Part shown: piece by piece, positions 24,978 to 25,744 of the stretch | Layout of the letters: each line of letters opens with the position of its first letter | How positions within the stretch are numbered: the first letter of the stretch is position 1 | NCBI RefSeq assembly: GCF_988243305.1 | Contig: NZ_OZ547136.1 | DNA: 64,000 nt | Direction: 5' to 3' (one strand) | The notes under the pieces: model-generated | The model's input: the letters and a program-made list of their open reading frames with translations, nothing else | What the model was told of the DNA's origin: nothing | Databases searched by the model: none | Position numbers and translations under genes: made by a program

Positions 24978-25172
24978 ATGTCAGAGCAGGAGTTAAAACT
25001 TGGTGCATGTTATTGTGTTCTCAAGGAGCTGGTACACATGCTTCCATCTACTCAGTATCAACAGTTAGTTGGCAATTTAAATCAGCGAATCGAAGCTATG
25101 TTAAAATCTGATGGTTTTAATAACGTAGAAACGCTGATGCTAAAAAGATATCTTGATGGATTAATCAGATAA
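24978..25172 (+). CDS. hypothetical 64-aa protein, convergent to the leftward operon
   Basis: ATG 24978 preceded by GGAGGA at 7-nt spacing; MSEQELKLGACYCVLKELVHML...; 3' end overlaps the 116-aa minus-strand ORF by 12 bp. Confidence 0.5.
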   Translation: MSEQELKLGACYCVLKELVHMLPSTQYQQLVGNLNQRIEAMLKSDGFNNVETLMLKRYLDGLIR

Positions 25173-25511
25173 CATTTTTTTACGGCGTTCATATTCGTTA
25201 ATATTTATGAAGCCTGTTGCCAGAAGCAGTTCGTTAATTTCATGGTTGTTTGGCTGTTTCTGGCTCTTTGAGCTGGGATCTTCCACTTCTTTTTCTGCAA
25301 ATTGTTTTGCTGTATCCTCTGTGCCATGGATATTTAAAGCTGTATCTGAAAACAGCCCAGTAAACGCATCGCGCACATTACGAGCCATATTATCAGTGTC
25401 TTTTTTTGTTACCGATTCCAATTCAAGTTCGTTCAGACGATGACGAAGTGTGTGTGCTGCAATCTCCTGGATTGAAGGAGGTAAATCTTTAAATTCCATC
25501 GTCAACCTCAT
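25161..25511 (-). CDS. hypothetical acidic 116-aa protein
   Basis: start overlaps the upstream ORF stop (TGATG); predicted helical and acidic. Confidence 0.5.
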   Translation of the reverse strand: MRLTMEFKDLPPSIQEIAAHTLRHRLNELELESVTKKDTDNMARNVRDAFTGLFSDTALNIHGTEDTAKQFAEKEVEDPSSKSQKQPNNHEINELLLATGFININEYERRKKMLSD

Positions 25512-25744
25512 CAGTCAGTGTTTCTTGCTAACCAGCGATGCGCGCCAGCTGCGGTTTTAAACGTTTTACTTTTGGTATACGTCATCGCGGTGAAGGTGCC
25601 GTCCTGGTTAGGGAACACACCGCATACCAGAGATTCGTTGTTGCCAAGATCGATAGTATCCATGCTGACCTCATTTCCCCTTAACGCCGGGGTAGCGGAA
25701 CAAAAACCTGCTGCATAGTTATTAAAGTTGAACCCTGCCGTCAT
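25511..25744 (-). CDS. hypothetical small protein (YdfA-like position, 77 aa or 50 aa from internal Met)
   Basis: first gene downstream of the cI terminator on the minus strand; internal start MDTIDLGNNESLVCGVFPNQDG... Confidence 0.45.
   Translation of the reverse strand: MTAGFNFNNYAAGFCSATPALRGNEVSMDTIDLGNNESLVCGVFPNQDGTFTAMTYTKSKTFKTAAGAHRWLARNTD

Follow-up and report, generated by a model that had tools for sequence, protein, structure and literature searches.

Introduction

In the Qin prophage of K-12, the dicBF operon (ydfA-ydfB-ydfC-DicF-dicB-ydfD) has the gene order ydfA-ydfB-ydfC, followed by a 340-nucleotide (nt) spacer and dicF. The ydfC-dicF spacer corresponds to a long untranslated region that is processed by RNase E and RNase III (PMC5069750). 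Here we describe the equivalent locus of a Qin/DicB-type lambdoid prophage contained in a 64,000-nt stretch of contig NZ_OZ547136.1 (RefSeq assembly GCF_988243305.1), referred to below as the window. At this locus, a gene for a 64-amino-acid (aa) protein lies antisense within the long untranslated region of the dicBF operon and converges on a minus-strand open reading frame (ORF) of 116 aa. Like Qin, the window prophage carries a repressor, a ydfA homolog, a long conserved untranslated region, DicF, and dicB, all in the same order. The two differ in that a MEFKDLP-family gene stands here in place of ydfB and ydfC, and in that a convergent coding gene occupies the untranslated region; K-12 Qin has only hairpins 1 and 2 of the leader described below, with no ORF behind them.

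A second relevant class is the lambdoid morons, which are independently transcribed accessory genes, often of atypical base composition, situated between conserved genes. The locus shares with them a low-GC insert between conserved flanks, a promoter-like site, a fixed position with highly variable content, and predicted expression while the prophage is repressed. In contrast to known morons, its cargo is antisense in the untranslated region of an operon, a single structured leader that pairs with the Shine-Dalgarno (SD) sequence serves all cargo families, the cargo co-varies with the C terminus of its neighbor, and no clear terminator was found. Layouts of a comparable kind are known from pore-forming colicins, whose immunity gene lies downstream on the opposite strand, and from lambda, where OOP RNA acts on the 3′ end of the cII mRNA. 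There, as is predicted here, a stress-induced gene is overlapped at its 3′ end by a small, constitutively expressed gene or RNA on the facing strand. However, no sequence or fold relationship connects these systems to the locus, and the likeness is an analogy only. A full-text literature search found no published description of the slot, the shared leader, or the linkage between cargo and C terminus.

Results

A small plus-strand gene converging on a minus-strand early gene

The central features of the locus, in window positions, are as follows.

24978-25172, plus strand: 64-aa gene (WP_001295058.1, phrog_4987)
24968-24973, plus strand: ribosome site GGAGGA of the 64-aa gene, 4 nt from its ATG
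25161-25511, minus strand: 116-aa ORF (112 aa if counted from the family start, ATG 25499), encoding a modular early protein
25161-25172: 12-nt overlap of the convergent 3′ ends of the 116-aa and 64-aa ORFs
25511-25744, minus strand: 77-aa ORF, a YdfA-family (DUF1391) gene
25509-25513, minus strand: TGATG junction of the 77-aa and 116-aa ORFs, which have one base in common
24640-24919, minus strand: long conserved untranslated stretch that precedes DicF in the DicF/DicB operon transcript

The ORFs, the TGATG junction, the 12-nt overlap, and the GGAGGA site all lie where an earlier reading of this DNA (here called the original prediction) had placed them. The 64-aa protein matches phrog_4987 over its full length (3e-49), with homologs in Salmonella (86% identity), a metagenome contig (84%), and Citrobacter (72%); two more distant members, 67 and 65 aa long, came from searching 1.8 billion representative proteins. 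In comparisons spanning E. coli, Salmonella, Citrobacter, and the metagenome contig, the in-frame ratio of nonsynonymous to synonymous substitution rates (dN/dS) was 0.12 to 0.31. Four control frames gave values of 0.45 to 2.8, and a fifth, antisense and without an ORF, gave 0.20 to 0.41. Judged by these substitution patterns, the 64-aa ORF is a real gene under purifying selection. The original prediction had allowed that it might prove unconserved; instead, it is conserved across genera. In relatives that carry CAA for the minus-strand TAA, the minus ORF is 7 codons longer and the overlap grows to 33 nt, a change that is silent (TTA/TTG) in the plus frame.

AlphaFold models the 64-aa protein as three helices packed in a compact bundle, with a predicted local distance difference test score (pLDDT) of 89.5. 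Sequence searches of NCBIfam, Pfam, PADLOC, and the PDB returned no known family beyond a weak IraP signal (see below), and Foldseek against the PDB returned only noise. A tblastn search of 50,697 GenBank phage records found no match to the protein, and the gene was met in prophages and IMG/VR contigs only. The cassette is present in 151 of 5,426 complete E. coli genomes. Its GC content is 36 to 37%, whereas the window as a whole has 51% and the untranslated region beside it 54%. Atypical composition and variable content between conserved flanks, two traits of morons, are both observed at the locus.

One conserved leader precedes many unrelated small ORFs

Upstream of the 64-aa gene, the following elements were found.

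24856-24884, plus strand: candidate sigma-70 promoter, read from sequence (−35 TTTTCA at 24856-61, 17-nt spacer, −10 TAAACT at 24879-84)
24891-24972, plus strand: conserved leader of three helices
24891-24914, plus strand: hairpin 1 (GCCGGA...TCCGGC)
24919-24942, plus strand: hairpin 2
24942-24948, plus strand: anti-SD CTCCATT, which pairs with AATGGAG at 24965-24971, overlapping the ribosome site

A leader of about 95 nt precedes the 64-aa homologs in distant hosts and also precedes wholly different ORFs. In an RNAalifold consensus of 18 leaders, hairpin 1 is kept, with a U.G pair in 17 of them; because of this U.G pair, the hairpin works on the plus strand only. The same consensus contains a 5-bp anti-SD:SD helix, four pairs of which form in 17 to 18 of the 18 leaders, the fifth being AU in 14 and UA in 3. 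Hairpin 2 occurs in whole-stem compensatory versions (CACACG/CGTGTG, CTCCAC/GTGGAG, CCCAAC/GTTGGG, and CTCCAT/ATGGAG). Compared with shuffled sequences, the leader folds stably on the plus strand (−30 kcal/mol, z-score −2.2) versus a z-score of −0.2 on the minus strand. When 10 divergent loci were aligned, 9 had a TAnnnT-like hexamer in matching columns just upstream of hairpin 1. Taken together, this architecture suggests that translation of the 64-aa gene is gated by its leader.

A pattern scan of IMG/VR for the leader yielded at least 120 stretches. Across all sequences fetched, 139 leader copies were found by regular expression, and 83 of these carry an ORF with SD and ATG. The ORF-bearing copies encode 40 distinct proteins of at least 50 aa, which fall into at least 12 unrelated families of 57 to 109 aa. 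The 56 copies without an SD-ATG match keep hairpins 1 and 2. This form is common in IMG/VR loci and is also that of the ydfC-dicF spacer of K-12 Qin (locus L140, positions 2543-2882), which keeps both hairpins and has neither a ribosome site nor an ORF. Since one leader precedes at least 12 unrelated small ORFs, the position appears to be a cargo ("moron") slot.

The convergent partner is modular, and its C terminus follows the cargo

RefSeq annotates only the first 50 codons of the 116-aa ORF, as a pseudogene "missing C-terminus." The comparative data divide it into two parts.

25344-25499, minus strand: conserved N-terminal module, aa 1-52 (MEFKDLP...DNMARNVRDAFTGLY)
25161-25343, minus strand: swappable C-terminal module

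A homolog search recovered 44 relatives of 62 to 186 aa. In an alignment of 21 proteins drawn from these and related proteins, the 52-aa N-terminal module is well conserved and is followed by several unrelated C termini; frameshifted relatives also exist in this alignment. Matches to PHROGs 2151, 1363, 9419, 6937, and 33007 are confined to the N terminus, and the MEFKDLP module is found as well in a 147-aa protein of Shiga toxin (Stx) phages. With Salmonella and metagenome homologs of the same C-terminal type as references, dN/dS was 0.25 to 0.48 for the N-terminal part and 0.31 to 0.47 for the C-terminal part, and no frame-breaking indels were present. Because both halves show purifying selection and the frame is intact, the 116-aa ORF is, on this comparative evidence, a gene under purifying selection along its length and not a remnant. 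Its product (in the 112-aa form) is acidic and hydrophilic, with a pI of 5.2 and a grand average of hydropathy (GRAVY) of −0.88, and has no relative in Pfam, NCBIfam, PADLOC, or PDB searches.

Family and RefSeq alignments of this protein begin at MEFKDL (ATG 25499), which has GAGG 6 nt upstream. Starting at TGATG adds four residues (MRLT) that are present wherever the DUF1391 gene precedes and absent where another gene precedes. Since the family start lies 12 nt further downstream, TGATG is not necessarily the start used, and the translational coupling that had been read from this junction is doubtful.

In most of the loci surveyed, the plus ORF runs up to or into the 3′ end of a minus-strand gene, the overlap being 0 to 131 nt. 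In every overlapping or abutting pair surveyed, one cargo family goes with one C-terminal module of the partner. Two deep comparisons illustrate this association. For ECs1072-like cargos that are 61% identical, the C-terminal 67 aa of the partners are 48% identical (E 7.5e-21) and the N termini are unrelated. For IraP-like cargos that are 36% identical, the partners are alike only in their last 24 aa (50% identity, E 3e-7). The C terminus of the window partner (...NELLLATGFININEYERRKK...) is weakly similar to the motif of the distant pairs (E 0.006 to 1.4). A Salmonella enterica contig (locus L016, positions 3001-4500) holds two convergent cassettes in tandem, a 64-aa IraP-like cargo with a 119-aa partner followed by a 69-aa cargo of the phrog_4274 type with a 200-aa partner; both partners start with the MEFKDLP module. 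The association of each cargo family with a specific C-terminal module implies that the pair behaves as a unit. Partners are nevertheless not universal: in Citrobacter, the 64-aa cargo is present and the partner is reduced to about 13 codons, some cargo families adjoin the DUF1391 gene without a partner, and Stx phages carry the MEFKDLP-module protein without a convergent ORF. An AlphaFold model of a cargo-linker-partner fusion had a predicted template modeling score (pTM) of 0.38 and lowered confidence in the cargo, and supports neither binding nor its absence. The convergent layout itself, which the original prediction called common for toxin-antitoxin or exclusion modules, is not accidental: numerous prophages whose sequences are wholly different show it again at the equivalent place.

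A second recurring internal module (...ELKHIIALLLEDAKRLQ.LEPNAGTE...) was observed in the minus-strand partners of loci L010, L021/L076, and L028, whose N and C termini differ. From their sequences, the minus-strand early proteins appear to be mosaics of at least three kinds of module. An invertible segment like the G segment of Mu was considered as a source of a constant N terminus with alternative C termini and was set aside, with no repeat search made, given that a separate leader, ribosome site, and start serve the plus ORF.

The 64-aa protein resembles the C-terminal part of IraP

IraP (YaiB) is an RssB anti-adaptor that stabilizes RpoS, and horizontal acquisition is presumed for the other known anti-adaptors as well. 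Like IraP, the 64-aa protein is small, and it is predicted to be soluble and all-helical; profile matches run end to end with IraP residues ∼20/28-83. IraP differs in being 86 aa long, and identity is only ∼11 to 13%. The iraP gene adjoins phoA, whereas the 64-aa gene is prophage-borne and lies behind a hairpin leader.

The Citrobacter homolog is named IraP by NCBI. The NCBIfam IraP model (NF007598) matches three relatives at 5.4e-6, 5e-3, and 1e-2 (26.8, 17.3, and 16.3 bits; cutoff, 78) and does not match the window protein. The Pfam IraP model (PF10796) gives E ≤ 0.1 for seven of eight family members, with a best value of 5e-5 and a value of 0.065 (14.3 bits) for the window protein itself. 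When the family was compared with an IraP alignment in hhalign, P was 3.6e-4 to 3.8e-4 over 54 to 56 ungapped columns ending at both C termini; as a control, 11 other cargo families of the same slot gave P ≥ 0.0075 over at most 31 columns. In a Foldseek search of AFDB50, IraP models ranked 6, 10, 11, and 35, with TM scores of 0.56 to 0.85 and E values of 1.3 to 5.8, which are usual for small helical proteins; the best of these matches had a TM score of 0.85 and a root mean square deviation of 1.4 Å over 61 columns. Pairwise BLASTP of the 64-aa protein against E. coli IraP produced no alignment, so the similarity is visible to profile methods only. These profile comparisons suggest that the 64-aa protein is probably a distant homolog of the C-terminal two-thirds of IraP.

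Whether it also does the work of IraP is a separate matter. The predicted coiled coil of IraP (residues 1-35) is the proposed RssB contact, and mutation of L9 weakens IraP (PMC4428439). The 64-aa ORF begins at the equivalent of IraP residue ∼20. With the N-terminal coiled-coil stretch absent, functional equivalence is much less certain than homology, and we regard it as possible but doubtful.

A second cargo family (MINAEQLEKEISELKKEL..., 75 aa; L023, L096, and others) showed a weak hhalign match to the N-terminal coiled-coil part of IraP (P 0.0075, 31 columns). This cargo adjoins a helix-turn-helix (HTH) protein and not an overlapping partner.

Comparison with toxin-antitoxin and exclusion systems

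The original prediction suggested that convergent small genes at this place might form a toxin-antitoxin or exclusion module. Nothing in our analysis identifies one. The 116-aa and 64-aa products match no toxin, antitoxin, or defense family in PADLOC, NCBIfam, or Pfam and have no PDB relative. Type II toxin-antitoxin genes are co-directional, co-transcribed pairs, whereas these genes are convergent with separate upstream regions. Type I toxins are small hydrophobic membrane proteins; judged by GRAVY, the products here are hydrophilic (−0.14 for the 64-aa protein to −0.88), and the 64-aa model is a bundle rather than a single long hydrophobic helix. For exclusion systems of the RexAB/SieB type, there was no PADLOC match and no PHROG of known function, and the hydrophilic character of the products argues against a membrane exclusion protein as it does against a type I toxin. 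The occurrence of the cargo without a partner also speaks against a module of this kind.

Operon context of the slot

The slot lies between the immunity region of the prophage and its DicF and dicB genes.

25936-26652, minus strand: prophage repressor gene, cI-like, LexA/S24 family with a DicA-like HTH
25905-25930, minus strand: intrinsic terminator ending the repressor gene, with a 10-bp stem and a U run behind it (−15.1 kcal/mol, z-score −3.8)
25847-25862, upstream of the left operon: operator-like palindrome GGTAACAAGAGTTACC, 0 mismatches in a pattern search
24586-24637, minus strand: DicF sRNA gene (Rfam RF00039, full length, 76.7 bits versus a threshold of 48)
24226-24414, minus strand: dicB, 62-aa cell division inhibitor gene (NCBIfam NF049927, 9.7e-39, above cutoff; RefSeq annotation)

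The repressor (RefSeq "LexA family protein," 238 aa) matches NCBIfam DicA (2.3e-22), a LexA C-terminal domain, and phrog_4. Its terminator lies directly before the ORF pair, as had been predicted. The prophage is of the Qin/DicB lambdoid type: cro-like and YdaT/cII-like genes diverge from the repressor gene, and the left operon continues to DicF, dicB, a DUF1482 gene, and an exonuclease. Pattern searching located copies related to GGTAACAAGAGTTACC at 26610-26625 (two mismatches) and 26658-26673 (one mismatch), in the divergent repressor/cro promoters, so that the three best matches cluster at the immunity region. We infer that these palindromes are operators. Since they are common to the left promoter region and repressor/cro, the left operon is probably repressed in the lysogen.

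The 77-aa ORF matches Pfam DUF1391 (PF07151; 1.1e-28, residues 29-75 on model positions 1-47 of 48), a match to the full length of the family, and phrog_751. RefSeq annotates a 153-nt coding sequence, "DUF1391 family protein," from the internal ATG at 25663 (50 aa), which has GAGG 5 nt upstream, and a Citrobacter homolog has no N-terminal extension; the real start is likely ATG 25663. Here the DUF1391 gene comes first after the repressor, as expected of ydfA in a dicBF-type operon and as seen in K-12 Qin. The proposed correspondence of the position with ydfABC of Qin is borne out by the K-12 gene order. The original prediction had also considered that all three products might be of the YdfA/B/C type; this holds for the 77-aa ORF, a YdfA homolog, but the other two products are neither YdfB nor YdfC. 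The untranslated region downstream is 96 to 99% identical across 19 phage records and recurs in the ydfC-dicF spacer of K-12 Qin.

Discussion

We favor, with somewhat more confidence than doubt, the interpretation that this locus is a lysogen-expressed accessory-gene slot placed antisense within the dicBF-type operon of a lambdoid, Qin-like prophage and occupied here by an IraP-like cargo. In the lysogen, the repressor would silence the left operon through the operator at 25847-25862, and the cargo gene would be transcribed on its own, with the leader gating its translation. By analogy to IraP, the cargo product may bind a host regulator, with RssB as the first candidate, and thereby raise RpoS; since the N-terminal coiled coil of IraP is absent, the target may differ. 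The minus-strand transcript would comprise the ydfA-family gene, the modular early protein, the long untranslated region, DicF, and dicB. Upon induction, left-operon transcription would run antisense through the cargo gene and shut it down, and the co-inherited C-terminal module of the early protein may also act on the cargo protein.

Several observations weigh against this interpretation. The candidate promoter scores 8/12, under the 9/12 threshold of the scan tool, and no conserved terminator was found for the 64-aa gene; the A/U-rich hairpin at the 3′ overlap of the window, flanked by A and U runs (z-score −3.4), is not conserved in three relatives. Per-hairpin stability of hairpin 2 is ambiguous as a strand test, with 12 variants favoring the plus strand and 22 the minus strand, and assignment to the plus strand consequently relies on the U.G pair, the SD pairing, and the whole-leader z-scores. 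Hairpins 1 and 2 also stand without an ORF in numerous loci, K-12 Qin among them, so some of the leader may function in the dicBF transcript of the minus strand. The IraP scores are below every curated threshold (14 to 27 bits versus 78), with an hhalign probability of 36% and Foldseek E values above 1, and the 64-aa protein has no counterpart of IraP residues ∼1-20/27, the alignments covering ∼20/28-83 only. Finally, the strict association of cargo with C-terminal module suggests more than an independent moron.

That association is an argument for reading the locus as a cognate two-protein module, toxin-antitoxin-like or effector and neutralizer, in which the small protein is constitutive in the lysogen and is bound by the C-terminal module of the induction-specific early protein, one neutralizing the other. 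A one-to-one correspondence in every overlapping or abutting pair surveyed, its persistence on unrelated N termini in the ECs1072-like and IraP-like cases, the two tandem pairs of the Salmonella prophage, and the retention of 3′ overlap or abutment in nearly all pairs speak for such a module. However, no toxin, antitoxin, or defense family was matched, the cargo is partnerless in places such as Citrobacter with its ∼13 partner codons, and Stx phages carry the N-module protein with no convergent ORF. The fused AlphaFold model (pTM 0.38) has no confident interface, the C-terminal motif of the window resembles that of distant pairs only weakly, and linkage of this kind arises from adjacency alone. 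We therefore consider a cognate module unlikely. A more inclusive version, to which we would assign a similarly small chance, joins the two ideas: the locus would belong to a polymorphic, undescribed family of cognate pairs in the lysis-lysogeny switch, each consisting of a host modulator made in the lysogen from a shared gated leader (here IraP-like, acting on RssB/RpoS or a similar adaptor) that is neutralized or redirected on induction by the matching C-terminal module, antisense transcription also silencing its gene, with at least 12 specificities among enterobacterial prophages.

The conserved position and RNA structures would also fit a device that works at the RNA level, in which the convergent transcript, by interference and by forming duplex RNA with the left-operon mRNA, would in the lysogen hold down transcription that leaks through to the toxic DicF, dicB, and genes beyond them, in a way that resembles lambda OOP RNA, and the ORFs would be interchangeable passengers. 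The slot does lie between the left promoter and DicF/dicB, within the operon's untranslated region, the 3′ ends overlap, and conservation of the promoter and hairpins, which remain in ORF-less loci, far exceeds that of the cargo. Against this stand protein-level purifying selection on the cargo ORFs and conservation of cargo families across genera, and the presence of a conserved anti-SD:SD helix with a strong ribosome site is typical of a gene that is translated; an RNA device is, in our view, quite improbable. Decay of the locus, with a truncated 116-aa pseudogene and a fortuitous or dead 64-aa frame, was already disfavored and appears highly improbable. The RefSeq pseudogene call on the first 50 codons, the existence of frameshifted relatives, and the lack of functional annotation anywhere are consistent with such a remnant, but dN/dS is well below 1 in both ORFs and in both halves, the frame is kept across genera, the cargo is modeled with a confident fold, and distant homologs share the leader and layout.

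If the 64-aa protein does act like IraP, prophages of a class common in E. coli and Salmonella would adjust the RpoS general stress response while repressed, and prophage carriage would be linked by a direct route to traits of stress tolerance and virulence. The leader common to all cargos offers a short DNA pattern for finding the slot and yields at least 12 uncharacterized small-protein families. Linked as each family is to a matching module of an induction-specific protein, these would constitute a compact system for prophage swapping of small host-modulating genes. Two annotations are also corrected: the "pseudogene" is a gene under selection, and the "untranslated region" of the DicF operon appears to be coding on its other strand in many strains.

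Additional features of the region

In E. coli O104:H4 strains, a RelE/RelB type II toxin-antitoxin pair lies between the repressor and the DUF1391 gene (2009EL-2071 locus, positions 4434-4915, corresponding to ∼25745-25935 of the window), which makes the spacer immediately before the left operon a second site at which accessory modules insert. RefSeq gives the name "toxin YdaT family protein" to the gene following cro in the window (26914-27339, plus strand); since this gene takes the place of cII, "toxin" is probably a misleading label here.

The core of the dicBF untranslated region (window 24640-24890; L013 3680-3900) is near-invariant between E. coli prophages and the distant prophage L013, which has no Rfam DicF match within the locus fetched. 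Inspection by eye shows a hairpin (GGGTTGTCA...TGACAACCC) in this core, together with a long-range pairing (GAAGCGCAC...GTGCGCTTTC); the core belongs to no Rfam family and may be an undescribed structured RNA element. At the position of E. coli DicF, locus L010 (∼3735-3795, minus strand) has a DicF-like terminator hairpin (GGCGACC...GGTCGCCGCCCTTTTT), again recognized by eye and without an Rfam match, which may be the DicF analog of another host. Directly downstream of DicF in the window and overlapping the start of dicB, sub-threshold matches to the Salmonella sRNA family STnc100 were detected (24379-24588, minus strand; 31.6 to 38.7 bits versus a threshold of 47), and these recur in the related loci L005, L007, and L010. 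L013, whose cargo is IraP-like, additionally carries a C4 antisense RNA (3181-3268, minus strand; 72.6 bits) and a weak isrK-like match (3379-3445, minus strand) next to an Ash-family gene, in the manner of a P1/P7-type immunity element.

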